A DNA stretch of 64,000 nucleotides from contig CALQZP010000001.1 in NCBI GenBank assembly GCA_943349725.1, positions 5,401 through 69,400 on the forward strand, in the 5' to 3' direction. This document shows positions 36,649-64,000 of the stretch, piece by piece. Under the pieces are notes generated by a model that searched no databases, was not told the DNA's origin, and saw only the letters and a list, made by a program, of their open reading frames with translations. Positions within the stretch are counted from its first letter, which is position 1. The number at the start of each line of letters is the position of its first letter. Source of the stretch: Candidatus Nomurabacteria bacterium (GTDB lineage: Bacteria; Patescibacteriota; Minisyncoccia; Phycocordibacterales; UBA10002). The position numbers and the translations under genes were made by a program.

Positions 36649-37461
36649 ATGGAAAATATACAATATGAAAAGTTTTTAGGGGAGCTTGGACTCAACAAAG
36701 AGCAGTCACTCGTCTACGAATCGCTCTTAAAAAACGGGCTTATGCCCGCTAGAGTTGTAGCCCAAAAATCAGGGGTCAAGCGAAGTCTTGCTTATAAAAT
36801 ATTAGAGCAGCTTATTTCGCTTGGTTTGGTGGAAAAAAGAGACAATATCGGGAAAATTACCCTGTTCTTCCCTGCCCACCCGGGCAAGCTTCGAGAATTC
36901 CTGCAAAAGCGCGAGGAAGCCATAAAAACCGCCGAGGCTTCGCTCGGCGGGATTATGGGGAAAATGGTGTCGGACTTTAATTTGCTTTCAGGAAAACCCA
37001 ACGTGCAATTCTACGAAGGGCCGGAGGGGATGAAAAAGGTGTTGGAAGATTCTCTTTCGGCGGAAAGTGAAATCTATTCATATTCTGATGTTATTTCGGT
37101 ACAACAATATATCCCCACTCTTAACACCGAATACATGGCCAAGCGGACCAAATTTAATGTAAAGAAAAAAATACTTTTTTTTGATTCTAAAGAAGCACGC
37201 GCTCTTCTTCCTAAAATATACAAACCGGATATCACGGAATATAAATTCATTCCGTTCAAAACGGAACCGCCTCATACTGTCATGCAAATGTATGACAAAA
37301 AAGTATCGTACATCACCCTTGCCAAAGAACAAATGATCGGCGTCATCATTGAGGACGCGAATATTTATTCACTTCATAAATATCTCTTTGAACACCAGTG
37401 GAGTACTAGTCCCGAACTCCCAATAGGAGCGGTTTCTGCGGTCGAGAAAACTCTTCAATAG
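36649..37461 (+). CDS. TrmB-family transcriptional regulator
   Basis: 270 aa; N-terminal winged HTH (LNKEQSLVYESLLKNG...ILEQLISLGLV) and TrmB-like C-terminal domain. Confidence 0.6.
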   Translation: MENIQYEKFLGELGLNKEQSLVYESLLKNGLMPARVVAQKSGVKRSLAYKILEQLISLGLVEKRDNIGKITLFFPAHPGKLREFLQKREEAIKTAEASLGGIMGKMVSDFNLLSGKPNVQFYEGPEGMKKVLEDSLSAESEIYSYSDVISVQQYIPTLNTEYMAKRTKFNVKKKILFFDSKEARALLPKIYKPDITEYKFIPFKTEPPHTVMQMYDKKVSYITLAKEQMIGVIIEDANIYSLHKYLFEHQWSTSPELPIGAVSAVEKTLQ

Positions 37462-40300
37462 CCGCGTCGGTAGTCTTCTCAAAAACCAAGTAAGAATTCT
37501 GCGACTTCTTGTCTCGAATATAACGGGTAAGAACATGCCGAGTGCCGTCTGCACTGCGCTCATTTAGAAGTGCGAGGTCAGTCTCTGTCACAGATTCTAA
37601 TGGAACTTTCTTACATATATACCCCGTTGCAGTTTCACATGTCCGCATAATTTCTTCAGATGCAAGATTTTTTGAAATGAATATGTCTTTTTTTGTGTCG
37701 TGTCGAGTAATGTACATCAGATGCGGTTCGTTGACTTGTTTGGTATGCGTTCCAATAAAACCTCGTTCGATATAGTTCGAAGCGACACTTTTATCCGCAA
37801 TACAATTTGCTTCTATCACCGAATCTCTTGCCTGTACATCCAAAGACTGTTGCATCAAAGCTTCGCCTAGGCCTGAACCGGCGTATTTCGGGTTCATGTT
37901 GAAGGCGCCGAAGTAAATCCTGTCTTGAGGAGACATACCAAGCCGGTAAAACCCTTCGATTTCACCTTTGTATCGAAGTACGTAAAACCGATTGGTTGGC
38001 TCTTTCAAAACCCGTTCAAAACTCTCAAGCAACATTTTTTGAAACTCGGGATATGCCGAGTAATTAATTCGATAAAATTCCTTCATTCTTTCTTTATCCA
38101 CTTCAGAAAAAGACTCGGGGGAAATACCTTGAGTAAATTCGACATCCTTTATCTCGGCGAGGTTTAATTGTTCTCCCGTTTTTGCTAACTCTTTGAACGT
38201 AGCGGCAAAAAGTGCGGCATCACCGCGAAGAAGAGAGAGTTCCTGTTCCAAATCCTCAACCGCTCGATCATACTTCCCTTCTTTTGCTGATTTAACTTTT
38301 GTCGCAAACAAAACGAGCAATTCCCTCCCTTTCCTCAACAAATTTTCCCGAACATCTACCACCATCTCCGGTGACCGTGTGCCCGCAAGCTGTCCTGTAT
38401 AACTTTCGGCTTGTTCGGCCGCGTCCACCAGCTCACCATACTTTTCGAATAATCGAGAGGCCTCCGCCTTAGGTAATTTCTCGCCGAGTGCAACAATATC
38501 ATCTCCGAGTTCGCGACCGTATTCGAGGGAAAGAAATGTGCGAAAACCATTTTCTCCATATTTTGCGACAAAGTCTTGTACTTTTTTAATTTCGCCCTCT
38601 TTTTTTGCTTTTATATAATTTAAAAATTGAAACTGCTCACTGGCTGGGAGTCTTTGGATCGGGTACGAAAAAAGCTTCTCGATTTTATTCCTCATCGCTG
38701 GTGTCAACAAATATCTGTAATCAAGAAAAATTTGTTTTCCCTCTTCTTCATTCCCAAGAGAACCTTTCATTGTAGGCCCGTGGGGGTCCATTTTATGGAG
38801 TTCGTATTGGGTAATTATTGGAAGAAAACTTCTTCTTTCATCGCGCACTGAAGAAATCTCACTTTCGAGATTTTCTATATGTTCGGAAATCTCATCAATT
38901 TGATCAACGAGTTCTTTTCGCGTCTTTTTTGACACATCCTCCCTTTTTTTAAAATATTTTTCAAAGTCGTTTAGTGCCCGGTCTTGCAAAATTTTACTTG
39001 TTATTGCTTTTGTTTCCTCAACCGCGCGTTCTTTGTCAGATGCCACAGTACTACCCTCTCCGTAATCCTCGTCTTCTAAGACGTGGAATATAAAATCGCT
39101 TTCTTCAGCTATTTTATTCCTTTGACGAATTAAACTTTTCAACTTCTCTTCACACTTTTCCAATCTTTCAAGTGCTTCAATGTCACCTTCTTTTAAGGAA
39201 TCTGAAACATAAAGACCGTCACTTTTTAATACAGCAATCTTATTCCTCTCGTATTTAAAAAATCTTTCGTTATTTATTAAAGAATCCTTCATACGGCTAC
39301 GGGAAAGAATTTCACCTTGCACCAACTCCAACTGGAGACCCGAGTCATCCTCATTGTTGATAATGTCTTCCGCGCGCATTTTCAATAACATTCCCGAATC
39401 CCCCGTAACTTTCTTTTTTAACACATCTCTAAGCGTTAGAAAAAAAAGATGGTCGGCGCCTCTATCCATCACGGCTTTTATAAACTCCAAAAAAGCGGCT
39501 GTTTGGGCATACTGGCGTTCGTCCTCAAAATTAAGTGCTTCATCAAACTCTTTCTCTATCTCCCACAACAAACTCTCGCCCATATAAGATTCTTCTCCAG
39601 CTGTAAAATCAGAAAAATCTGATGCATCCTCAAATATTGGGTCGTGAAAAGGTCCAGAGAACTCCTTGTTTTTTTTAATTCTCTTATTCGCCTCTTCTGC
39701 ATATTCCCACTCTCTATGAAAGACGTAATACAGAATTCCGTCATCAGCGTCACGAGAAGCAAATTCCCATGCTAAATGCTTATAGGCTTTTATCAATTCG
39801 GGCATACCAGCTGGTCGCGGGACAAGAAGAGCTATTACCTCTTTCTTAACTGCAAGAGGGGGACTTTTTTGTTCTTCCAAACCCTTAATCATTAAGAGTA
39901 AGGCTTTTTTGTGCTCTACTTCGTAGGGTGAATTTACCACCTTCACTTTCTCGGCAAACATTTCATCGTCTTCACAAATTACTAAGTTTTCTGCATATTT
40001 AAGAATATCCTGCTCCACATCAGGAGTAATACGGAATCCACCTTCGTGATACATCTCCCTTTCAGCCTCAATCTTTTCTTGTTTCCACTGCTTCGATAGA
40101 GCTATGGCGACCGTTACAGCATCGGCTTTTTCTTTTACTTTTGTATCCTGTTGGTTGGGAACATCCGGAGTTGGTGTAAACATTTCAGACATGACACCAT
40201 TATAGGCGAGTGGAGGGGAAAGAAAAGGATGCGGAATGCGTCTTGTTTTGTCGCCATATGCATAATGGCGACCACGGTAACCGACTTTTGAGCTATCCAC
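37406..40300 (-). CDS. large acidic coiled-coil protein (964 aa) with a C-terminal GNAT-like acetyltransferase fold
   Basis: C-terminal segment FYVLRYKGEIEGFYRLG...NPKYAGSGLGEALMQ...YIERGF resembles GNAT motifs A/B; the rest is unrecognised. Confidence 0.45.
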   Translation of the reverse strand: MDSSKVGYRGRHYAYGDKTRRIPHPFLSPPLAYNGVMSEMFTPTPDVPNQQDTKVKEKADAVTVAIALSKQWKQEKIEAEREMYHEGGFRITPDVEQDILKYAENLVICEDDEMFAEKVKVVNSPYEVEHKKALLLMIKGLEEQKSPPLAVKKEVIALLVPRPAGMPELIKAYKHLAWEFASRDADDGILYYVFHREWEYAEEANKRIKKNKEFSGPFHDPIFEDASDFSDFTAGEESYMGESLLWEIEKEFDEALNFEDERQYAQTAAFLEFIKAVMDRGADHLFFLTLRDVLKKKVTGDSGMLLKMRAEDIINNEDDSGLQLELVQGEILSRSRMKDSLINNERFFKYERNKIAVLKSDGLYVSDSLKEGDIEALERLEKCEEKLKSLIRQRNKIAEESDFIFHVLEDEDYGEGSTVASDKERAVEETKAITSKILQDRALNDFEKYFKKREDVSKKTRKELVDQIDEISEHIENLESEISSVRDERRSFLPIITQYELHKMDPHGPTMKGSLGNEEEGKQIFLDYRYLLTPAMRNKIEKLFSYPIQRLPASEQFQFLNYIKAKKEGEIKKVQDFVAKYGENGFRTFLSLEYGRELGDDIVALGEKLPKAEASRLFEKYGELVDAAEQAESYTGQLAGTRSPEMVVDVRENLLRKGRELLVLFATKVKSAKEGKYDRAVEDLEQELSLLRGDAALFAATFKELAKTGEQLNLAEIKDVEFTQGISPESFSEVDKERMKEFYRINYSAYPEFQKMLLESFERVLKEPTNRFYVLRYKGEIEGFYRLGMSPQDRIYFGAFNMNPKYAGSGLGEALMQQSLDVQARDSVIEANCIADKSVASNYIERGFIGTHTKQVNEPHLMYITRHDTKKDIFISKNLASEEIMRTCETATGYICKKVPLESVTETDLALLNERSADGTRHVLTRYIRDKKSQNSYLVFEKTTDAAIEEFSRPQKPLLLGVRD

Positions 40301-47843: not shown

Positions 47844-48944
47844 TCAGCGGTTCATCGGCATCACGAGGTATAGAAAACTTGTCTCCCCCACTCCAGAGAT
47901 GAGCAGTGGTTTGTTTTCTCCGCTAAACTTAAACGCTACACTATCTGCGGAAAGAGCATTCAAACAGTCAGCTATGTACCGGTGGTTAAAATTACCCTGA
48001 AGTGGCTCCCCTGTAAGCGCAGAAGAAACCGAGGCACTACTTTCTCCGAGTTCCCCGCTCTTAGCGGAAAGCTCAAACAGCTTCTTCTTAGGCTCAAGGC
48101 TCACGTGTAGCTGATTAAAACGGTCAGAAAAGAGCGTAGTGAGCTTAAGTGAGGAAATAAGGTCTTCCTTGAGGACAACGGCCTCTGTGGCGAACGTTTT
48201 AGGCATAATCTGCCGATAGTCTGGAAAAGAACCTTCTACAAGCCTTGAGGTGGCAAGAAGTCCATCACCTTCAAGTGAAAGCTGTCCTTTACCAATAGAA
48301 AGCTTCACTTCGTCCTTTTCCTCTTCAAGAATACGAATAAGTTCGGTTACGTTTTTGATAGGGACCAAAACAGGCTGAAATGACGTGGCTGTCTTTTTGA
48401 AAGGCACCTTCTTCTCCGCAAGTCTAAATGAGTCCGTCGCTACAAACACAATATCCTCTCCATCTTGATAAAGATACACACTTGAAAGCTCCGGTTTAAG
48501 GTTCCCCACAGCTCCAGCGTAATAAACAGACTTAAATCCTTTAAGCAGAAACTCTGGAGTGAAGGAGAACGTAGAGCCTTCGGCCTTCGGAATGGTCGGA
48601 AAATCATCACTCGCTGTACCGTTAATCGTCGCTTTTGCTCCACTAGAAGAAATAGTCAATTTACCATTTGTTACTTCTAGCGACACACTTTTCACATTAC
48701 CCAAGTTTGAAATAAAAGAAGAGAGAACTCCAGCAGGAACTGCTATTTCTCCTTCTTTTTCAACCTTAACAGGAATTTTATACTCAACTCCCATCTCAAG
48801 ATTGGTCGCCCTCACCGTAAGAAAACCTCCTTTCGTAATAAGGAGAATATTAGAAAGAATAGGGAGAGAAAGATGTTTAGAAGCAAGACGGCTTGCCTTT
48901 CCTACAACTATTTGTAATTTATCTTTTATAACTTCAATCTTCAT
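47844..48944 (-). CDS. dnaN: DNA polymerase III beta sliding clamp
   Basis: 366 aa, three-domain clamp pattern, MKIEV start, directly downstream of dnaA. Confidence 0.85.
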   Translation of the reverse strand: MKIEVIKDKLQIVVGKASRLASKHLSLPILSNILLITKGGFLTVRATNLEMGVEYKIPVKVEKEGEIAVPAGVLSSFISNLGNVKSVSLEVTNGKLTISSSGAKATINGTASDDFPTIPKAEGSTFSFTPEFLLKGFKSVYYAGAVGNLKPELSSVYLYQDGEDIVFVATDSFRLAEKKVPFKKTATSFQPVLVPIKNVTELIRILEEEKDEVKLSIGKGQLSLEGDGLLATSRLVEGSFPDYRQIMPKTFATEAVVLKEDLISSLKLTTLFSDRFNQLHVSLEPKKKLFELSAKSGELGESSASVSSALTGEPLQGNFNHRYIADCLNALSADSVAFKFSGENKPLLISGVGETSFLYLVMPMNR

Positions 48945-49236
48945 TTTGTTTTTTATTATACTAATTCAATTTAGTTATCCACATTTTTCCACCTCTCTTT
49001 CTTTAATAGATATTTTTAAAATAAAGAAGTAGTTATTATTAAGAGTTCTGTGTATAAGTGGATAACTTTTTATACCCTTTCTTGTAGCTCTATTTCAACC
49101 CCTCAGGTAACTTTTATTCTGTGCATAATTCATTTTTTCTGGTGGTATCCCCCAAAAACATTTTCAGATTTTAATTTTATCCACAGGTTTTCCTTTTGTT
49201 GTCCCACTGTTTTCCACAGAGTTCCTCACAGAATAA
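48945..49236. promoter_or_regulatory. candidate oriC (dnaA-dnaN intergenic) with DnaA boxes and AT-rich DUE
   Basis: Perfect TTATCCACA at 48975-48983 and 49177-49185; one-mismatch boxes at 49057-49065 (reverse) and 49210-49218; AT-rich tract 49000-49050. Confidence 0.6.
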
Positions 49237-50580
49237 TTAGAGGAGAGCCCGAATCTGATTAATTTCCTGAAGTAGGTTTGGGTCTTCGCGGATCTCGTTC
49301 TTTATTTTGTCGCACGAGTGGATGACTGTTGTGTGATCTCTTCCTCCAAGCCTCTGCCCAATAAGAGGGAACGAAATACTGCAGTCCTCACGGAGAATAT
49401 ACATGACAAGCTGTCTCGGCTTCACCACCTCTTTCCGACGAGTCTTCTCGTAGATGTGATTCTCGTCAATGTTGTAAAAGTCGGCGACAACCTTCGTAAT
49501 ATCCTTAATTGACAAGCTTTTCTTCGGCTTTCCGGTGTTCTTAAGAATAGCTTTTACCTCAAGTACCCCGAGGTCTCTCCCTTTCACCTGTGTCTGCATC
49601 ATAATGGAATTGAGAATTCCTTCAAGCTCTCTGATGTTCCCCTCAAGAGTTGCGGCGATGTAGTCGGCAACTTCACTTGAAAGCTCAAACCGCATAAGCC
49701 GAGCCTTGGTTTTGAGGATAGATACACGCGACTCCCTGTCCGGAGGAGGAATATCGACAATCATACCGGCCGCGAAACGGGATTTTAGACGTTCCTCAAG
49801 ATTCTGAATATAATTTGGGTGCTTGTCAGAGGAAAAGATAATTTGTTTGTTATGCGCGTAAAGGTCGTTGAATAAATGGAAAAGTTCTTCCTGACTCTTC
49901 TCTTTATTTGAAAAGAACTGGATGTCATCCATAATCAGCGCGTCATACTGACGATACTTCTCCTTAAATTGAGAGATGCGACTCTGTTGCATCGCGGTCA
50001 CAAAATCCTGGGAGAACTTTTCCGAGGTAACATAATAGATTTTTTGTCCGGGAAACGCAGTCTTGAGATGATTCCCAATAGCTTGAATAAGGTGGGTCTT
50101 GCCGTGCCCAGTCGAACCGTAGACAAAAAGAGGGTTGTAGGTAGCCCCCGGGCTTTTAATGATGGCCTGCGAGGCAGCGTGCGCGAGTTCGTTGAAAGGA
50201 CCCACGACAAACGAATCAAAGGTGTAGCGTGGGTTAAGGTTGGTCTCTTTGTCCACATAATGATCCTGGAGCGGGAGTTCGGGCGTGCGAGACGGAGCTG
50301 ATGTTTTCAAAAGTTCCCGTTTTCGGGGGTCGTCCTTGGTAACGGTATATTCAATGGAGCGGATGTGCTCGGAAAGAGTACGAAGCGAATGAAGAATCGA
50401 TTTGTGGTATTTGTTGAGCAACCAATCCTTCACAAAGGTATTTGGTACCGAAAGATGGACTACCCCCTCTTCTATGCGTGCTATCGCAGTATCTTTAAAC
50501 CACGTCGTAAAGTTCGCCTTAGAAACGGCGAGTTCAATCTCCGCAAGAGCACTTTCCCAGAGTTGTTTGGTGTCGGTCAT
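49237..50580 (-). CDS. dnaA: chromosomal replication initiator DnaA
   Basis: 447 aa; AAA+ motifs GSTGHGKTHL, box VII, C-terminal DNA-binding domain. Confidence 0.9.
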   Translation of the reverse strand: MTDTKQLWESALAEIELAVSKANFTTWFKDTAIARIEEGVVHLSVPNTFVKDWLLNKYHKSILHSLRTLSEHIRSIEYTVTKDDPRKRELLKTSAPSRTPELPLQDHYVDKETNLNPRYTFDSFVVGPFNELAHAASQAIIKSPGATYNPLFVYGSTGHGKTHLIQAIGNHLKTAFPGQKIYYVTSEKFSQDFVTAMQQSRISQFKEKYRQYDALIMDDIQFFSNKEKSQEELFHLFNDLYAHNKQIIFSSDKHPNYIQNLEERLKSRFAAGMIVDIPPPDRESRVSILKTKARLMRFELSSEVADYIAATLEGNIRELEGILNSIMMQTQVKGRDLGVLEVKAILKNTGKPKKSLSIKDITKVVADFYNIDENHIYEKTRRKEVVKPRQLVMYILREDCSISFPLIGQRLGGRDHTTVIHSCDKIKNEIREDPNLLQEINQIRALL

Positions 50581-50848
50581 AAGATAATGAAATATGGAAT
50601 ATGAACTATATAATAAGAAAGCTAATCGGATATCTTATGGTATATGGTTCATATTCCATTTCTTAGTGGTACTAGTATATACCGATAACCGAAATGCAAA
50701 ACTTGTGAAAAAACCTGTGATATGTTAATAATATGTGGACAAGTTGGGGACAAGACCATATGGACCACATAACATGGATCACGTAACATCAGGCAGTCTC
50801 AAGAAAAGTCTTGTATTCCGTGTTTCATAATTCATAATCCATTTCTTT

Positions 50849-51001
50849 ATGAGCTTCACCTACAACCCAAAAAGAAAGAAACGAGCACGAACACACGGTT
50901 TTCGCTCCCGCATGGCTACCCCCGGAGGTCGTTCGGCTCTTTCCAGACGACGCGCTAAAGGACGTAAGAAGCTTACGGTAAGTCGAAAGAAAGCCTCCTA
51001 G
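50849..51001 (+). CDS. rpmH: 50S ribosomal protein L34
   Basis: 50 aa [24 protein letters not shown]...; below the ORF-track size cutoff, found by manual translation. Confidence 0.85.
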
Positions 51002-51005
51002 GAGC

Positions 51006-51037
51006 AAAAAAGCCTGCCTGTTGGCAGGCTTTTGTTA
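51006..51037 (+). terminator. Rho-independent terminator after rpmH
   Basis: aaaaaagcctgcc tgtt ggcaggcttttgtt. Confidence 0.7.
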
Positions 51038-51064
51038 TAGGGCTTACACATTTCGCACTTTTCT

Positions 51065-51140
51065 GTCATTCCAGCGAAAGCTGGAATCCAGTGTTAGGCC
51101 ATTTTCTGAAGTCCTGGATTCCAGTTTTCACTGGAATGAC
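51065..51140. repeat. twin-hairpin palindromic element (gtcattccagcgaaagctggaatcc family), copy 2
   Basis: attccagc-GAAA-gctggaat hairpin plus ggattccag-ttttca-ctggaatgac hairpin; shares its 5' half with 2763-2817. Confidence 0.6.
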
Positions 51141-51182
51141 ACCGATTGAGCAGGTTCTATATAAGCTAAAAGCTCTCCTTCA

Positions 51183-51521
51183 ATGCTCCCCAAATCAAAA
51201 CGTCTCACCACCGAGGACTTCAAAACACTGAAGGGTGGGCGAACCACGCACACTCCCCACCTCATTCTCCGCCTCTCCCCTGCACCTGAAGGAGTGGGAA
51301 AATTTGCCGTTGTGGTGTCGTCTTCAAACTACAAACGAGCGGTTGACCGCAATCTACTTAGACGACGCCTTTACAGCCTCATTAAGAGGCTTCTCCCACT
51401 TCTCCCAAAAGGTATCCTCACCGTCACCTGTAAAAAGGGAGCACTCCTTGCGACCTTTTCGGAGTTAGAAAACGAGGTACACTCCTTGTGCGCAAAAAAG
51501 CCCACATCTACGGCAGTCTGA
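51183..51521 (+). CDS. rnpA: ribonuclease P protein component
   Basis: 112 aa basic protein, KSKRL...FAVVVSS RnpA pattern, follows rpmH. Confidence 0.8.
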   Translation: MLPKSKRLTTEDFKTLKGGRTTHTPHLILRLSPAPEGVGKFAVVVSSSNYKRAVDRNLLRRRLYSLIKRLLPLLPKGILTVTCKKGALLATFSELENEVHSLCAKKPTSTAV

Positions 51522-51573
51522 CTGCTGTAAATACTCCTTTGGTAATTTACCGATTTTGGGCTAGAATAGGGCC

Positions 51574-52308
51574 ATGTTCGCACTGCTAAAGGCGATTTTT
51601 TATATTCCCCTCTACAATGGGCTCATTTTCCTGATAGATGTCCTCCCCGGACATTCGGTCGGCATCGCGGTCATACTGTTTACCTGCCTCGTTAAACTGG
51701 TCCTCTCCCCTCTTTCCCATAAGGCGGCCAAGTTTCAGTTGGAAATGAAATTGCATGAGCCCGAGATAAATCGCCTTAAAGAACAATTTAAAGCCGACAA
51801 ACAGGCACAAGGAAAGGCAATTCTAGATTTTTACCGCGAGAAGAAGATCAATCCGTTTGCAGGTATTTTGCCCCTTTTTATACAAATTCCCATTTTCATC
51901 TCCCTTTACTATGTGTTTTATGCGGGAGGGCTTCCTTCGATAGACTCTTCCCTCCTCTATTCATTTGTAGCGGTACCTGTCCCCGATATGCATCTTTTTG
52001 GTTTCAACATTCTTGAAAAAAGCATGCTGCTCGCTGTGTTGGCGGGAGTCGCCCAGTTCCTGCAGGCGCACTATGCTATGCCCCCTGCACCGCCCAAGAC
52101 CGACACACCCTCACTTGGGAATGACCTCGCGCGCGGTATGCATATGCAGATGAAGTATGTACTCCCCGTATTTATGGTCTTTATCGCCTACGCGATAAAC
52201 GGAGCAGTTGCACTTTATTTTATAACGAGTAGTCTGTTTACCATCGCGCAGGAGCTTGTGGTGCGCAGGTCACTCAAAAAGGGCCATCCTACCCACCCTG
52301 ACAAGTAA
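51574..52308 (+). CDS. yidC: membrane protein insertase YidC (short form)
   Basis: 244 aa, five TM helices, conserved YidC core; rpmH-rnpA-yidC-jag synteny. Confidence 0.8.
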   Translation: MFALLKAIFYIPLYNGLIFLIDVLPGHSVGIAVILFTCLVKLVLSPLSHKAAKFQLEMKLHEPEINRLKEQFKADKQAQGKAILDFYREKKINPFAGILPLFIQIPIFISLYYVFYAGGLPSIDSSLLYSFVAVPVPDMHLFGFNILEKSMLLAVLAGVAQFLQAHYAMPPAPPKTDTPSLGNDLARGMHMQMKYVLPVFMVFIAYAINGAVALYFITSSLFTIAQELVVRRSLKKGHPTHPDK

Positions 52309-52402
52309 CAGATACCAATCAACGAATGAACACCAATCTACAAATACCTACAAATGAGAGATAGGAGGATTAGTAGGTATTCGTTATATTGGTACAGATT
52401 AG

Positions 52403-52912
52403 TTGATTGGTAAAAGTATGAACTCAACCGAAATCAAAAAAATCATAGAAGACTTGCTTCGCCACATGCAGATATCCGTGGAGAGTATTTCGGTATCCGA
52501 GTGTGATGGGCGAGAGTGTTTTTCGGTACAAACTCCCGACTCCAGGCTTCTCATCGGGGAAGGCGGAGTCAATCTGCTTGCCTTCAATCACCTCGTTAAG
52601 AAGATGGCCTCACCAAAAGGCTCCACAGGCGAGACCCCCACAGTCGAGGAACGAGGGAAAACCTTTTTCGTTGATGTAAACGGCTTCCAAGAAGCCGCGC
52701 TTCAGAATATCAAAAATGTAGCCAAGATAATGGGCGACCGCGCTCGGTCATTCAAGACCAGTGTAGAGCTTGATCCGATGTCTTCGTATGAGCGAATGGT
52801 TATTCACGCCTTTTTCCAAGAGGCGAAGGACCTCAAGACCGAGTCGGTAGGTGAGGGAGACAAACGAAGGGTGGTGATACGGTATGTTGAAACTGGAACA
52901 AGTGACTTGTAA
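52403..52912 (+). CDS. jag: Jag/KhpB RNA-binding protein (KH plus R3H)
   Basis: 169 aa; R3H-like C-terminus RMVIHAFFQEAKDLKTESVGEGDKRRVVI; synteny with yidC. Confidence 0.75.
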   Translation: MIGKSMNSTEIKKIIEDLLRHMQISVESISVSECDGRECFSVQTPDSRLLIGEGGVNLLAFNHLVKKMASPKGSTGETPTVEERGKTFFVDVNGFQEAALQNIKNVAKIMGDRARSFKTSVELDPMSSYERMVIHAFFQEAKDLKTESVGEGDKRRVVIRYVETGTSDL

Positions 52913-57518: not shown

Positions 57519-59096
57519 TTAGGGGAGCTTCTCTCCCCTCAGTACTGCTTTAATGACGTGGGCCAGCTCATTTTTGAGCTTCTTCTCGGTTTTCTTCACC
57601 GCTTCTTTAAGGCCTTCTTTAAGACCAGAGATGTTTCCGGTTGTTTTCTGTCCGCCTTGCGTTGAAACATCTGCTTCTATAGGTTTTGTCTGTTGCGCGG
57701 ATGAGATTGACGCGGTGGGGGTAGTATCATTTCCACTCTTCTGGTTCCCTGGGGAGCTTGTGGCGGTTTGAGCCGCTCCATTTGTTGTTGCTCCCGCAGG
57801 AGTCTGGGTTGGCGCACTTCTTTTTTCTTCAGGCTTACTATTTTGAGTTTGCGGAATAGGTTGTGGTGCTGTTTGTGCGGGAGGCGGTGTGTTTTGTGTT
57901 TGCGCTGGTGCGGGTGAAGCAGTGGCCGGTGCTCTCGTAGGAGTTGTTTGTGCTGGAGGCGTGGTTGCTTGTGGTTTTGTTTCGGTAGGTTGCGGTAAGG
58001 AGGTTTCAGCACCCTTTGCTTGAGCTCCCTGCGGACGTGCAGGCGGTTTCTGGCTTTGTGGAAGCGGTGGTGGGCTTGGTCTCCTCGGTGCGCTGTTTTC
58101 TGGTGACGGTGTTGATACAGGAGCCGTTCCAGGTTCTTGTCTAGCGGGTTCCGGGCTCGACTTATTCGCTGTAGGTGCCTGCCCTAATGGAGTTGGCGGG
58201 GGTTGTACTGTGGAAACTTTCGGACTCTCCCGCTTTGTTTCTGGTGCTTCTGCCTGCGAAGGTGACCGTGGAGTCTGCACTGTGTCGGAGCTGTGCGGTG
58301 CCATTTCCGCGGTTGAGTTTTGCGGTGGAACAATCGGAGATTGTGGTTGTCTAAACACCGGCTGTGCGCCAATGTCCTGATTTGGTGTTGCAGAAGGAGC
58401 TTGCCCCGTGGAAGAGTCTTGGTGGCGTGCAGGATGGTTAGCAGTTACGGGGCTTGAAGCGCCTCCCGTTTCGGCGACACGGTGAGTTTGCTGTGTACTT
58501 TCTTGTCCCCCATGCGATACGCTTCCCGCACTCCCCACAGCACCTCCGCTTGTTGCCTCGGTTGCCTGTGGAGCGCGAAGGTTAAGAGTGTTGTGTGTTT
58601 CTCCTCCACCACCCTCCTTCTTTTCCGCTTTATCCGCTTTCTCACTCTCCGACCTTTGAGAATGAGCGAGACTTAGACCTCCCTGCGTCCTCGCTGCGAG
58701 AGCCTTTGATGCTAGGGTACCAAGTGGCCCCGCTTTCTCTAGCAGTTCCTCGGCACGTGTCGTCGCGAAGAGCACAAGTACCGCTACGGTCCATGTGGGT
58801 AAGATTCCGCCAATGGGTACGACTTTGACAAGAAGCGCCAGCGGGAATGTCATAATACGCTTCACGCCAACGAAATTTACGCCGTGCAATTTGAACCACA
58901 CATAGAAGGTGAGCCATGCCCAGATAGAAACCAGCACACCAACCATGAGGTTTATTGTGGAAGTAAGCAAATTCAAAAGCGGGATAAAGTCCAGCAATTT
59001 CGGGGCAGCAACTATAACATCAAACAGCAGTGCAACCGCTCCCATAAGCACAATTGTGGGAATGCTGATTCTGTGTTTTGCGGGGGTTGAGGGCAC
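57519..59096 (-). CDS. polytopic membrane protein with long Pro/Thr/Ala/Gln-rich disordered C-terminal region (VirB6/TrbL-like candidate)
   Basis: 525 aa; 4-5 TM helices in the first 120 residues, then low-complexity PQ/PT/PA repeats. Confidence 0.4.
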   Translation of the reverse strand: MPSTPAKHRISIPTIVLMGAVALLFDVIVAAPKLLDFIPLLNLLTSTINLMVGVLVSIWAWLTFYVWFKLHGVNFVGVKRIMTFPLALLVKVVPIGGILPTWTVAVLVLFATTRAEELLEKAGPLGTLASKALAARTQGGLSLAHSQRSESEKADKAEKKEGGGGETHNTLNLRAPQATEATSGGAVGSAGSVSHGGQESTQQTHRVAETGGASSPVTANHPARHQDSSTGQAPSATPNQDIGAQPVFRQPQSPIVPPQNSTAEMAPHSSDTVQTPRSPSQAEAPETKRESPKVSTVQPPPTPLGQAPTANKSSPEPARQEPGTAPVSTPSPENSAPRRPSPPPLPQSQKPPARPQGAQAKGAETSLPQPTETKPQATTPPAQTTPTRAPATASPAPAQTQNTPPPAQTAPQPIPQTQNSKPEEKRSAPTQTPAGATTNGAAQTATSSPGNQKSGNDTTPTASISSAQQTKPIEADVSTQGGQKTTGNISGLKEGLKEAVKKTEKKLKNELAHVIKAVLRGEKLP

Positions 59097-59212: not shown

Positions 59213-62200
59213 CTATTCCTTCCCTTCCGCCGCCTTCAGCTCATCCTTTGCAGCCTTGATGGAGAGGAGTTGCGACGGGTCGGAGGTAATGATTTGGTCT
59301 TCGGTATAGGAAGCAATGATTTTGATGGCGACATGCTTGAGGCCCACGAAGAAGAGCCCCTCCCCTACGTCAGATTCAAGCAGGAGATATTTCTCTTCAT
59401 CCGTTAGGCTGAAAATAGTTTGGAGCTTGTCCACCACCGTTGGCGATTGCTTGAGGAGCATCTGCATTGAGGAGTTGGTGAGAATGGGGAGTCCATAGGG
59501 CGACTTCAAAAAGTCGTCCACGTCTTGAGTAATAGTAGAAAGACCGAGGTAGTATTTGCGTCCACGTTTCGCAAGGCCAAGAAGGAACGAAGCGGTGTCC
59601 TCCGATTTCATCATCCACCACGCCTCATCAATCACCATCAAACGTTTCTTGAGCTCCTTTCTGATGGAGTTCCAGATGAAGTGCATTACGATATACATTG
59701 CGGCAGGCTTCAGCTCATCTTCCATATCGCGGAGTGAAAAGACGATAAAGTTTGAATTGATGTCCACGTTTGACGGTTGGTTGATAAAGCCCGCCCACGT
59801 GCCGTGCGTATATTTGGAAAGACGCTGTACAAGCGACTCGGCTCCTTGGATTCCCGCAAGCACCAATTCAAAGTCGGAAAGAAGCGGTGGCTCTATTTTT
59901 GAGAAATCAGAGTCGGGAGTAATGTCCTTCAGCGCGTAAGTTTCGGCAATGGCGCGGTCAATCATCGCGTCTTCCTCCGCGGAAAGCCCTCCGAGGAGAA
60001 TGCGAAATAGTCCCACCAGGTTGATGATGTTTGAGCGTAGCACGTCAGCCGGAGATTCGTCTTCTCTTGGGGGCGCAAGCTCAAAAGGGTTGATATGGTG
60101 CTCCGAGTTGAGTGAGATGTTGAAGTATTTTCCGCCTGTTGCCTCCGCGAGGTATTCATACTCGCGTTCGGGGTCAATGACAATCACGTCCGTGCCGAAC
60201 ATCAGTGAGCGCAAAATCTCAAGCTTGGTCATATACGAGTTATGCACGAACATACCGCCATATCCCGCTAAGAATACTTCGTTATCCACCGTTAAATCAT
60301 AGACATATCGTTCCGTTTTGTTTGTGAAAGGTTCAATCGCCACAATCTCGTCCCACGCGAGGTCTGCAGTCGCCAACTTCTCCAGTCGCACGAGTAGCTC
60401 CCGCACACGAGGAATGTTGTTGCATAAGGAATGGTAACGGGCAGAAATGAAGGAGGACGCCTGCGTCAGCATTTCATAAGAGGTGTTGGCTTCAGGGTGG
60501 ATATGAAGGGCTGTTCGAAGTGAAGGGTTATGATACTTCATTGGCTCGCCTAAGAATTCGAATCCCTCGCTTATCGCTTCTTTGAGCTCGGGTAGTCTGG
60601 GTACGTCAATTCCCATACAGGAAAGAGCGGTAACGGCATTTGCCATTCCGGGCATCTTTCCTTTTTTCATTGTCGCAAAGCTTGAGCCGAGTTCTTTCCA
60701 TAGCAGGGCGTTTACGGCTTTGCTCTGCTTTGCCACTTTTATAATATCCGCAATGGTAGGCAATCCAGTGAGAACCCTGAAAAGAGCCCGCTTTGATTCA
60801 ATGTCCCGTATCACCATTCGTATGTCGGCAATGACTAGTTTTAACTGCCTCGGTGATGGGTTAAAGACACCACGTTTGAGGGGACTCCAATTCTTTCGGC
60901 CACGCATCGCTTTGCCGAGAAGCGCGTCAATTTCTTGAAAGAGTGGAGGAAGTCCGGGAATGATATCTACATTCGTATTTTCGGCTCGCTTCAATGTAAG
61001 CAACATCCCTTTTTTTCGTTCCGATATGAAATTGATATGTTCTCGAAATGACGACAGATTCTTCTGCCCCGATATGGTGAGCAACGAATAGTCCTCCTTA
61101 GATTTTCCGGGTATGAGCTTTTTCCTTACCGCCAAACGACTGATGACGCCAAAGTTATACAGCAAGTAGCAGAGGTCGGAGGTAAGCATTCTTGATTTTG
61201 AGACTGCGGTTATGGTCGGTCCGTCCACTCCGCCGTCACCCTCAAAATAGGCAGAGAGGAAAGCCGTCTGCGCGTTTCGTGGGCTTTCAAAAATGATGGA
61301 AGGAACTCGTTTGGTTGCCGATTTTTCTTGTAATCCGATTATGGCGAGAAACTTTACGAAAATAATATCGCTTATAACCACACTTTTCGGTGTAAGGAAA
61401 TGTTGCACTTCCAAAGTGGTAAGAGCCGTACAAACGTCCTGTATCACTTCAGGGTCAATGTTGCTTATAATCGCAACCTTCTTTCCTATAGTCCCTTCGG
61501 ACACCAAATACCCAAGTATTTTTGCAAGTGCGGGAGTGACGGTATAGAACGCGGGTAGCTTTCCTGTCCCGCTCGCGGAGATAATGAAGCACTGTGCTAG
61601 GCGAGCGTCGGTTATCTCAAGAGAAAGGCAGGCAAGTAGTTTGCGAAAATAGGAGATTGGTACGCGCCTTCCGGCGGCATACTTGTAAAGATAGCGGTCA
61701 AATCGTGAGTCAATAACCTCTGTCCTAAGCAAGCGTCTGTATTCCACCATAAGCGGTGCGACTCCGGTAACATATACACGCGAGTCCGCCATATGTTTTA
61801 GTAGATTGAGTGTGAGTGGAGAGGTTGTGCCGTTCTTTACTTCTCGTGGCAAGGGTACATATTCACCTAGACCGATATCCGCGCTCTTGGTGGCAACCAC
61901 TTCTCCCTTCCGAAGCACCAGCATATTATGGTCGCCTGTAGTTTCCACCACACGACCACTGCGAGTTTTGAAACGGTACAGTTCTTGCGGAGCGTCTTTT
62001 CGTGCCGCAACCGTTACTCTGCTCCACGTGCCCTTCATCTCTTTATCAAAGCTCCATACTTCAAGTCCTGGGTCAATAACCCCTTCTAGTTCGTGGTCAA
62101 TTTGCATCACCCCACGTTCCAAAATTGCTTCCTCAACAATATCCCCGATCGGCCGAAGTAACACTCGGTCATTTTTTCGCATGAGCACAGGTTCGTGACC

Positions 62201-63016
62201 AAGAATGCTCTTGCCCGAACCTGATTTAGCTAGGGTGATTGAGTTGTAGTTCTCCAAACTGAAGCGGTCAAAGAGAACAAGGGAAGCGTTGTGACGGTTG
62301 ATGCCGTAGAGAATGCCCTTGTTGGAAGTAAGGTCAAACGAGAGAAACGGAAACACGCTTGAAAGTGGAGAAGAGTTGAGCTTCGTGTGCACCATAAGCT
62401 CGTCGTTGCCAAGCGGAGAGGTGGAACGAAATCCTTGCTCCTGCTGAAAGAGAGCCGGTTTCATAATGACGAGTTTGCTTTCAAGAAGCGAGCGTATTTC
62501 ACTCTCGGTCTTATCAAGCTCGTTCTCATCTCCCGCATAGATGGTGAGATAAATACCGACATCAAAAAGCTTTTCCTGCGCCTGCAGAAGGTCATCACGA
62601 AGTTTCTCAAGGTCTTGGTAGGCTGTCTCAAGCATCGGGTCGCGTACGAGCCCCTTCTTCTCACGGTCCGCCATTTGACTCTGGACCTCCGCTACTTTTT
62701 TCTGGAAGGTGCGCAGTACCTTGGCGGTATCCACCGGGTGAATAAAGATACTGATGTCAAAAACCTTATCAAGATTGATAATGGGCGCGAACCAGCCTTC
62801 GGTGAGGTAACGGGGGTAGGAAATGACAAAGAATGTTCGCGTCATCTTCCCGCTCACGTTGAGCGACTTCGCCTCTATCTTGAGAGCCGCGGGGGCGATG
62901 ACATCTTGGAGTTCAAGCGTGCCAGATTGGTAAATCTGCTCGGGGAGAAATTCCGCGATATCCTTGTCCGCTTTTTTCTTGTTGAAGAAATTAAAAAACC
63001 CCATAATGTTTACCAA
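59213..63016 (-). CDS. VirB4/TraC-family conjugation/T4SS ATPase interrupted by an intein
   Basis: 1267 aa; Walker A AKSGSGK|S is split, and rejoining gives GSGKSYMTKLE; Walker B MVIDEAWWMM lies in the C-extein. Confidence 0.75.
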   Translation of the reverse strand: MVNIMGFFNFFNKKKADKDIAEFLPEQIYQSGTLELQDVIAPAALKIEAKSLNVSGKMTRTFFVISYPRYLTEGWFAPIINLDKVFDISIFIHPVDTAKVLRTFQKKVAEVQSQMADREKKGLVRDPMLETAYQDLEKLRDDLLQAQEKLFDVGIYLTIYAGDENELDKTESEIRSLLESKLVIMKPALFQQEQGFRSTSPLGNDELMVHTKLNSSPLSSVFPFLSFDLTSNKGILYGINRHNASLVLFDRFSLENYNSITLAKSGSGKSILGHEPVLMRKNDRVLLRPIGDIVEEAILERGVMQIDHELEGVIDPGLEVWSFDKEMKGTWSRVTVAARKDAPQELYRFKTRSGRVVETTGDHNMLVLRKGEVVATKSADIGLGEYVPLPREVKNGTTSPLTLNLLKHMADSRVYVTGVAPLMVEYRRLLRTEVIDSRFDRYLYKYAAGRRVPISYFRKLLACLSLEITDARLAQCFIISASGTGKLPAFYTVTPALAKILGYLVSEGTIGKKVAIISNIDPEVIQDVCTALTTLEVQHFLTPKSVVISDIIFVKFLAIIGLQEKSATKRVPSIIFESPRNAQTAFLSAYFEGDGGVDGPTITAVSKSRMLTSDLCYLLYNFGVISRLAVRKKLIPGKSKEDYSLLTISGQKNLSSFREHINFISERKKGMLLTLKRAENTNVDIIPGLPPLFQEIDALLGKAMRGRKNWSPLKRGVFNPSPRQLKLVIADIRMVIRDIESKRALFRVLTGLPTIADIIKVAKQSKAVNALLWKELGSSFATMKKGKMPGMANAVTALSCMGIDVPRLPELKEAISEGFEFLGEPMKYHNPSLRTALHIHPEANTSYEMLTQASSFISARYHSLCNNIPRVRELLVRLEKLATADLAWDEIVAIEPFTNKTERYVYDLTVDNEVFLAGYGGMFVHNSYMTKLEILRSLMFGTDVIVIDPEREYEYLAEATGGKYFNISLNSEHHINPFELAPPREDESPADVLRSNIINLVGLFRILLGGLSAEEDAMIDRAIAETYALKDITPDSDFSKIEPPLLSDFELVLAGIQGAESLVQRLSKYTHGTWAGFINQPSNVDINSNFIVFSLRDMEDELKPAAMYIVMHFIWNSIRKELKKRLMVIDEAWWMMKSEDTASFLLGLAKRGRKYYLGLSTITQDVDDFLKSPYGLPILTNSSMQMLLKQSPTVVDKLQTIFSLTDEEKYLLLESDVGEGLFFVGLKHVAIKIIASYTEDQIITSDPSQLLSIKAAKDELKAAEGKE
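60239..62209 (-). mobile_element. intein (about 657 aa) with double-LAGLIDADG homing endonuclease inside the VirB4 P-loop
   Basis: Ser1 directly after the GSGK; block B TTGDHNMLVL; LAGLIDADG motifs ILGYLVSEGT and LSAYFEGDGGV; C-terminal ...FVHN followed by Ser+1. Confidence 0.7.
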
Positions 63017-63045: not shown

Positions 63046-63480
63046 CTACGAATCTGACTCTCCTGGCTTGCGTGCCCCGTAGGCAACGCGGATAACACGG
63101 TGAGATCGAACATAAGTTCCTCCGAAATTAACAATGATACCCAATTGAATACCGGTTGCTTGCAAGTATCGCTGTATCTGATCATAATCCCCACTCGCCA
63201 CAAAAGGTTTCGCTTTCAATTCTAAGATGATCTTATCTTCAATTAAGAAGTCAAGAATGTTGTTCGTATCTCCAATTCTAAGCTCTCGCTTGTAGGTGAT
63301 GCCGTTTTCTTTGAGTTTTTGCTCCAGTAAGTCCGCGTATTGTTTTTCTCGAGAAAACTTTCCGATTTCATTATGAACAGTGTAACAGAGACCAACCATA
63401 TCGAAAGAAAGGTCGGGATAGAGAAGTCCTAGTCCTTTTTTCGCGTTCTTATTTGTAGGTATTTGCAGATTGGTGTTCAT
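63046..63480 (-). CDS. GxxExxY-family protein (PD-(D/E)XK-like)
   Basis: 144 aa; HNEIGKFSREKQYADLLEQKL, ILELKA, GIIVNFG motifs. Confidence 0.65.
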   Translation of the reverse strand: MNTNLQIPTNKNAKKGLGLLYPDLSFDMVGLCYTVHNEIGKFSREKQYADLLEQKLKENGITYKRELRIGDTNNILDFLIEDKIILELKAKPFVASGDYDQIQRYLQATGIQLGIIVNFGGTYVRSHRVIRVAYGARKPGESDS

Positions 63481-63494
63481 TCGTAGATTGGTAT

Positions 63495-63941
63495 TTAATT
63501 AGTAGATACGGTTTTTTCCGTCTCCCCCGGATTGAACAGCTGATAAAAGAGATCTACTACCTCCTCGGTCCCGAGTTGTGCAACCCTGACACCTGTTCGT
63601 ACCAATCCTTGTTCCACAACCGACACACGCTGTTCAAGCTGGGTACGTTGTTCGTCAAAGCTCTTCTGTTTTTCCGCTTCCGTATGCTTCCCTCCCCCGA
63701 ACCCGTCTTTAATACGCATCGTGATACCCCCGGCTCCACTGCTCAAATCTACGATGGCGGACGAGTAGGGCACGACAATGAAGAAACTCTTGTTCATAAT
63801 GTTCGTCCCCTCGGTAAATTTCTTGATGAAACCGATGTACTCGTGAGTCTGCAATTTAAGCAGTTCGTTCTTCTGACCTTTCAGACGCTCTTCAAGCGTC
63901 GCGATATACGGCCTGATATTGAACCGTCGAGACTGGACCAC
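63495..63941 (-). CDS. hypothetical protein
   Basis: 148 aa ORF at the end of the T4SS-like cluster; the region continues to the window edge. Confidence 0.35.
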   Translation of the reverse strand: MVQSRRFNIRPYIATLEERLKGQKNELLKLQTHEYIGFIKKFTEGTNIMNKSFFIVVPYSSAIVDLSSGAGGITMRIKDGFGGGKHTEAEKQKSFDEQRTQLEQRVSVVEQGLVRTGVRVAQLGTEEVVDLFYQLFNPGETEKTVSTN

Positions 63942-64000
63942 AATTTGTGTGGAAAAGTCTAGCGAGTTTAAGAAGTTTTGAAATTGGGAAATGATGGCCT

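Follow-up and report, generated by a model that had tools for sequence, protein, structure and literature searches.

How does a VirB4-like ATPase of a type IV secretion system (T4SS) come to carry several hundred additional residues in the middle of its P-loop, and how could such a gene give rise to a functional protein? This question is raised by an open reading frame (ORF) in a stretch of 64,000 nucleotides from Candidatus Nomurabacteria bacterium (assembly GCA_943349725.1, contig CALQZP010000001.1, positions 5,401 to 69,400), in the following called the window. We assign a probability of about 0.88 to the following reading: the insert represents a canonical class-1 intein, which contains a LAGLIDADG homing endonuclease with two motifs and is probably still mobile, and it is a selfish element kept across Patescibacteria by a cycle of gain and loss rather than a domain of the host protein.

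The ORF (59213..63016, minus strand) comprises 1267 amino acids (aa) when counted from a TTG start codon. The database protein P0001 is identical to it and has a length of 1263 aa, so that the annotated start lies four codons downstream of the TTG, at the methionine of ORF residue 5; this ATG (63004) is probably the true start. A script placed the first residue of SILGHEPV at ORF position 270 and the last one of FVHN at position 926, which gives an insert of 657 aa. With slashes marking the junctions, the N-terminal one reads NSITLAKSGSGK/SILGHEPV and the C-terminal one GYGGMFVHN/SYMTKLEIL, and the insertion point is located between Lys and Ser of the Walker A motif (GSGK/S). The gene is thereby divided as follows:

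62210..63016, minus strand: N-extein, ORF residues 1-269, ending in the first half of Walker A (AKSGSGK) and aligning without gaps to the intein-free protein P0121.
60239..62209, minus strand: complete intein, ORF residues 270-926, 657 aa, from Ser1 to His656-Asn657, followed by Ser+1.
59213..60238, minus strand: C-extein, ORF residues 927-1267 plus stop codon, starting with Ser+1, which is the Walker A serine.

Removal of the insert in silico leads to AKSGSGKSYMTKLEIL, or in a longer stretch LAKSGSGKSYMTKLEIL, with a complete Walker A motif, and to a spliced sequence of 610 aa; the motif GSGKS is present only once the insert has been excised. The C-extein contains the Walker B-like motif RLMVIDEAWW (VIDEAWW), shows Pfam matches to P-loop_TraG and AAA_10, and covers positions 429-732 of the NCBIfam model NF045971 (VirB4-like, CD1110 family). 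Against this model the spliced sequence reached 362.8 bits in a single stretch (cut-off 325), compared with 340.2 bits in two stretches for the unspliced ORF. The initial annotation had placed an intein at exactly these residues and had predicted that its excision restores GSGKSY in a VirB4-like protein; both the boundaries and the restored motif were found as described.

Several profile searches identified the insert as an intein. The Pfam model Intein_splicing covered the whole insert with 63.4 bits (cut-off 35.8), while LAGLIDADG_3 (PF14528) was matched with 55.9 bits (cut-off 22.5). The NCBIfam models intein_Nterm (TIGR01445) and intein_Cterm (TIGR01443) gave 41 bits (cut-off 24.5) and 18-19 bits (cut-off 15.6), respectively, and intein portions of many archaeal intein-containing NCBIfam models were partly matched as well. 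Residue conservation was counted over 121 sequences, namely the query and 120 homologous clusters. Intein position 1 is Ser in 119 and Thr in two of them. T91 and H94 of block B (TTGDH), D638 and F646 of block F, the terminal H656 and N657 as well as Ser+1 of the C-extein were kept in all 121. The two LAGLIDADG motifs read ILGYLVSE238-G239 and LSAYFEGD325-G326; the acidic residues E238 and D325 were each kept in 120/121 sequences, as was K300, and both glycines in 120-121/121. Hint block B, the two LAGLIDADG motifs, the terminal His-Asn and Ser+1, all named in the initial annotation, were thus recovered with little or no variation. Modelling of the insert by AlphaFold2 with 64 homologues gave a mean predicted local distance difference test score (pLDDT) of 92.2 and a predicted template modelling score (pTM) of 0.87; the intein shows the Hint fold and its endonuclease domain the LAGLIDADG alpha-beta-beta-alpha-beta-beta-alpha fold. 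The match of the insert to the intein pattern is far above chance. Rfam and tRNA scans of the window revealed nothing within or close to the locus.

Within the intein, five segments can be distinguished, all on the minus strand:

61820..62209: Hint N-lobe, intein residues 1-130, with block A (Ser1) and block B (T91-G-D-H94); TIGR01445 match with 41 bits.
61535..61819: variable basic linker, intein residues ~131-225, between Hint N-lobe and endonuclease.
60965..61534: LAGLIDADG endonuclease domain, intein residues ~226-415, with two motifs and conserved Lys300.
60365..60964: all-alpha domain of ~200 aa, intein residues ~416-615, between endonuclease and block F.
60239..60364: Hint C-lobe, intein residues 616-657, with block F (YVYDLTVDNEVFLAG) and block G (GGMFVHN); TIGR01443 match.

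The Hint N-lobe aligns with the mini-inteins 5o9i and 6rpq, and the endonuclease domain resembles PI-PkoII in sequence and in fold. The linker is the least conserved intein segment (0.48) and had no Pfam match; in the relatives P0030, P0037 and P0039-P0050 about 80-88 aa of it are missing (ORF residues ~407-491; window ~61544..61798). In several of these linker-deleted relatives the C-terminus of VirB4 is extended by 67-111 aa. Median net charges of +9 for the linker, +12 for the endonuclease and +6 for the helical segment, with acidic exteins, are compatible with DNA binding, without proving it. The GC content at third codon positions (GC3) also differs within the gene, with 0.489 in the intein and 0.619 in the exteins, which would fit an element that came from elsewhere or has been under other constraints.

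Uninterrupted alleles of the same gene were readily found. The best 120 matches to the spliced sequence among 5.8 billion proteins all originated from Patescibacteria, were intein-free and had lengths of ~600-620 aa (~606), with identities of up to 93%. The 657 aa are therefore not a constant part of the homologues, as would be seen for a lineage-specific domain common to all of them. All 120 matches carry G[SA]GKS[YF], and the best one, P0121, aligns without gaps across the junction with an intact GSGKSY, so that natural alleles are colinear with the product of in-silico excision. On the DNA level, genes are arranged in the contig L001 as in the window, with PrgI, a TraC-like/TrsD gene, a PDDEXK_3 ORF and VirB4 followed by four genes. 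At its uninterrupted P-loop site, GCGAAGTCCGGTTCCGGCAAAAGCTATATGACAAAACTTGAG, 72/90 flanking bases are identical to the window across the insertion point. The site was uninterrupted in 80/80 species-level genome loci retrieved, a sample of best contiguous matches that is biased to intein-free loci and gives no frequency.

Intein-bearing alleles are numerous, too. A search with the full-length ORF led to at least 120 clusters (90% identity) with the same architecture and an intein at the identical site, originating from Taylorbacteria, Zambryskibacteria, Nealsonbacteria, Paceibacteria and unclassified Patescibacteria and from NCBI, JGI, ENA and Logan assemblies. Most of these clusters have inteins of 655-668 aa. 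Identities to the query are 41-73% for the intein compared with 58-92% for the exteins; the intein evolves faster than the exteins. Among 72,556 plasmids searched for relatives of the intein, just weak matches to the endonuclease domain were obtained (22-32% identical).

For the analysis of the distribution, a neighbor-joining (NJ) tree of the exteins was calculated from the p-distances of 239 sequences. On this tree, the presence of the intein requires at least 15 state changes (gains or losses). The nearest neighbours of the query are intein-free, while two large clades are uniformly intein-positive. Of the listed clusters with at least 80% extein identity to the query, the intein is present in 11 and absent from 41. 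The distances of inteins and exteins are just loosely coupled, with a Pearson coefficient of 0.53, and there are pairs in which they strongly disagree: P0056 and P0094 differ by 2% in the extein and by 41% in the intein, P0060 and P0094 also differ by 2% in the extein, with the inteins of P0056 or P0060 being 39-41% different from that of P0094, and for P0003 and P0030 the values are 8.7% and 58%. As judged from these sequence comparisons, the pattern indicates repeated independent invasion or replacement instead of one ancient fixed insertion, and a homing cycle that would still be ongoing. Substitution rates were calculated for the window against the two intein-bearing relatives closest to it. 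Every intein segment showed nonsynonymous rates (dN) of 0.17-0.48 with synonymous rates (dS) above 2 or saturated beyond estimation; for the endonuclease domain dN was 0.17-0.27 with saturated dS, and for the C-extein 0.04-0.06. Because dN is low compared with saturated dS, all parts of the intein including the endonuclease are under purifying selection.

The segment between the endonuclease and block F is a special feature of this intein family. It is conserved and confidently folded, and no counterpart was found in PDB or, by fold search, in BFVD; in Pfam, searched at E-values up to 5, a single meaningless match (0.32) was returned. Among 1.84 billion representatives, alignments extending through the helical domain were found only for inteins of VirB4-like hosts and of two other ATPases of the DUF87/HerA type, while hundreds of other inteins aligned just to residues ~1-470. 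These two proteins, P0249 (1196 aa; GITGSGK/SVHY...FVHN/SYL) and P0286 (1157 aa; GTGKGK/SLDG...FVHN/SNL), have an intein of this family, complete with the helical domain, at GK/S of their P-loops, which suggests that the intein lineage hops among related P-loop hosts. It is doubtful, though conceivable, that the helical domain represents a new functional module, either for DNA targeting at the GK/S codons of several VirB4/HerA-type ATPases or as a sensor coupling splicing and T4SS activation to a cellular signal; that it adds DNA contacts is a guess.

By analogy with established inteins and LAGLIDADG enzymes, the following course of events would be expected. The gene would be translated into a precursor of 1263-1267 aa, in which the 657 residues interrupting the P-loop would prevent the binding of ATP. 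Splicing would comprise an N-O acyl shift at Ser1, transesterification to Ser+1, cyclisation of Asn657 aided by His656, and an O-N shift. The ligated exteins would form a VirB4 of ~606 aa with intact GSGKSY, where Ser+1 takes the place of the Walker A serine. The freed intein could then, as a site-specific DNA endonuclease, cut intein-free virB4 alleles at the P-loop codons, and repair from the intein-bearing copy would insert the element into the cut allele (homing).

Part of the observations would also be expected for an intein that splices but does not move any more, i.e. a fixed and vertically inherited passenger that is now and then lost by precise deletion. The strikingly uniform length, the positive correlation of intein and extein distances and the two uniformly intein-positive clades all fit this explanation, which we nevertheless consider unlikely: near-identical exteins hold inteins that are 40% apart, the closest relatives of the query are intein-free, and the endonuclease domain combines low dN with saturated dS. 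Also, conservation of E238, D325, K300 and the LAGLIDADG glycines in 120-121/121 sequences is unexpected for a dispensable nuclease. Still less probable, by our estimate, is that the intein was co-opted as a post-translational switch, with conditional splicing activating the T4SS and the helical domain serving as sensor or docking module. The insertion does keep the P-loop inactive until splicing, a conserved and confidently folded additional domain is present, epibiotic growth of Saccharimonadia was reported to require T4SS genes (PMC12102498), and P-loop inteins may be selectively retained according to Novikova et al. (PMC4760082). However, most close relatives (41 intein-free versus 11 intein-bearing clusters at ≥80% extein identity, among the matches listed) do without the intein, which therefore cannot be a required regulator. 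Moreover, the known Cys-based redox switch is unavailable with the nucleophiles Ser1 and Ser+1, and the intein is distributed in the manner of a selfish element. For a non-splicing lineage-specific domain, or a virB4 gene that was inactivated or misassembled, nothing speaks but the unusual length and NCBI names such as 'LAGLIDADG family homing endonuclease' or 'hypothetical protein'. Domain and assembly artefact were both rejected as scarcely credible, because all Hint blocks are present and invariant, the empty alleles are colinear to the residue, and the same architecture occurs without stops or frameshifts in more than 100 independent assemblies (NCBI, JGI, ENA, Logan); the exteins are also highly conserved, as seen from the low dN of the C-extein.

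Some points count against a mobile selfish intein or reduce the weight of the evidence for it. Both protein samples are lists of the best 120 matches, so that the prevalence of about one fifth of close relatives is a rough value. The trees are simple NJ trees of p-distances, and part of the incongruence could stem from recombination within virB4. As dS is saturated, omega is bounded to values much less than 1 rather than measured. Finally, with a helical domain that has no known counterpart, a part of the element is left unexplained by this reading.

Among known systems, there are precedents for this type of element, for this type of site and also for the host family. PI-PkoII (Pko pol-2 intein of Thermococcus kodakarensis; PDB 2cw7/2cw8) and PI-PfuI (1dq3) are likewise inteins with a LAGLIDADG endonuclease. 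These archaeal elements reside in DNA polymerase or ribonucleotide reductase, whereas the host of the window intein is a VirB4 ATPase from another domain of life. The window intein is also 120 aa longer than PI-PkoII, with the extra ~200-aa all-helical domain before block F. The P-loop is a documented recurrent intein site, as in DnaB site b, MCM site a and RFC-S site a (PMC4760082). These inteins and the VMA intein (TliVMA, PDB 7qsu) belong to other host families and can be likened to the present case on the level of the P-loop, while the window intein has a host of the VirB4/HerA-FtsK branch and the nucleophiles Ser1 and Ser+1. Comparable with respect to the host are five VirB4 (COG3451) inteins from Firmicutes/Proteobacteria and 21 inteins in archaeal VirB11 listed in Table 3 of Novikova et al. 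2016 (PMC4760082), likewise in type IV secretion ATPases but in other phyla; the Patescibacteria VirB4 intein lineage, which comprises at least 120 clusters (90% identity), appears far more populous than the listed VirB4 inteins. No mention of this lineage in Patescibacteria, also known as CPR, was found in the searchable literature, and a survey of 2,474 VirB4 homologues (PMC12102498) does not mention intein, LAGLIDADG or homing in its text or searchable supplements; database records label some members 'intein/homing endonuclease'. The remark of the initial annotation that inteins in T4SS ATPases of CPR-like bacteria were not known to be described hence agrees with the papers searched as far as Patescibacteria are concerned, while VirB4 inteins as such had already been listed.

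The properties of the host protein were compared with those of the T4SS described for Patescibacteria. The match of the spliced sequence to NF045971 begins at model position 174 of 752, so it does not have the full-length VirB4 architecture including the N-terminal domain. This domain is encoded by a separate upstream TrsD/TraC-like gene, and a separate VirB4 N-terminal protein has been described for Patescibacteria (PMC12102498). In the window the gene is located at 63501..63998 (minus strand) and is cut by the window end. Using tblastn, residues 50-215 of the TrsD/TraC-like homologue of L001 matched the window with 85% identity, so that the 148-aa ORF is a truncated view of the gene. The initial annotation had stated that the ORF is about 650 aa longer than VirB4/TraC ATPases; the right comparator is the Patescibacteria VirB4 of 606 aa and not the canonical one of ~800 aa, because the N-terminal domain is a separate gene here.

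The window is chromosomal, with dnaN (47847..48944) and dnaA (49240..50580) upstream of the T4SS cluster. Together with yidC and a jag-like R3H gene, which are also found there, they span window positions 47847..52909, ~1-3 kb from the cluster, and by these neighbours the T4SS locus adjoins the probable replication origin. An origin-proximal chromosomal T4SS related to monoderm MPF-FATA systems has been reported in many Patescibacteria (Quinonero-Coronel et al. 2025, PMC12102498). It shares with the locus in the window and its relatives the ~606-aa VirB4, the separate TrsD/TraC-like protein, PrgI in syntenic loci and the vicinity of dnaA/dnaN. These clusters mostly lack a relaxase and are probably not conjugative (PMC12102498). 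The host system is this chromosomal Patescibacteria T4SS, for which a conjugative role is unlikely. The earlier proposal that an active conjugation ATPase would depend on protein splicing stands with regard to the P-loop, which is restored only by excision, while 'conjugation' is too specific for a system mostly without relaxase.

The four genes downstream of virB4 encode proteins of 525, 347, 334 and 399 aa in the window and of ~508, 340, 351 and 399 aa in L001. The 525-aa protein directly downstream (57519..59096, minus strand), for which no Pfam match was obtained, spans the membrane with its N-terminal part and ends in a low-complexity tail of ~350 aa with many P, T, Q and A residues; in this region AT skew (-0.53 to -0.56) and GC skew (+0.2 to +0.3) are extreme. 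Between the TrsD/TraC-like gene and virB4, a small ORF with PDDEXK_3 (PF13366) nuclease fold is located at 63046..63480 (minus strand). In relatives (L001 5536-5922, L003 1786-2061, L004 59-451), the slot taken by PDDEXK_3 genes in the T4SS cluster varies, and they are accompanied by 23S_rRNA_IVP (PF05635) genes; this has the look of small mobile or selfish genes spread through the cluster. Elsewhere in the window, a 964-aa ORF (37406..40300, minus strand) has as its sole Pfam match a GNAT acetyltransferase at residues 745-856.

The VirB4 P-loop case leaves the understanding of inteins unchanged. It matters for annotation, as the database entries of such genes bear the name 'LAGLIDADG family homing endonuclease' or 'hypothetical protein', and lengths, alignments and presence calls of VirB4 in Patescibacteria should allow for the intein. 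An intein with Ser1 and Ser+1, without a cysteine at either junction and with more than 100 natural variants could be raw material for tools, and a homing endonuclease that would be aimed at the conserved P-loop site could likewise serve as such. For the organisms themselves, the finding implies that in a sizeable minority of lineages the T4SS can work only after protein splicing, and the patchy and incongruent distribution of the intein indirectly points to DNA still being exchanged among uncultured Patescibacteria.

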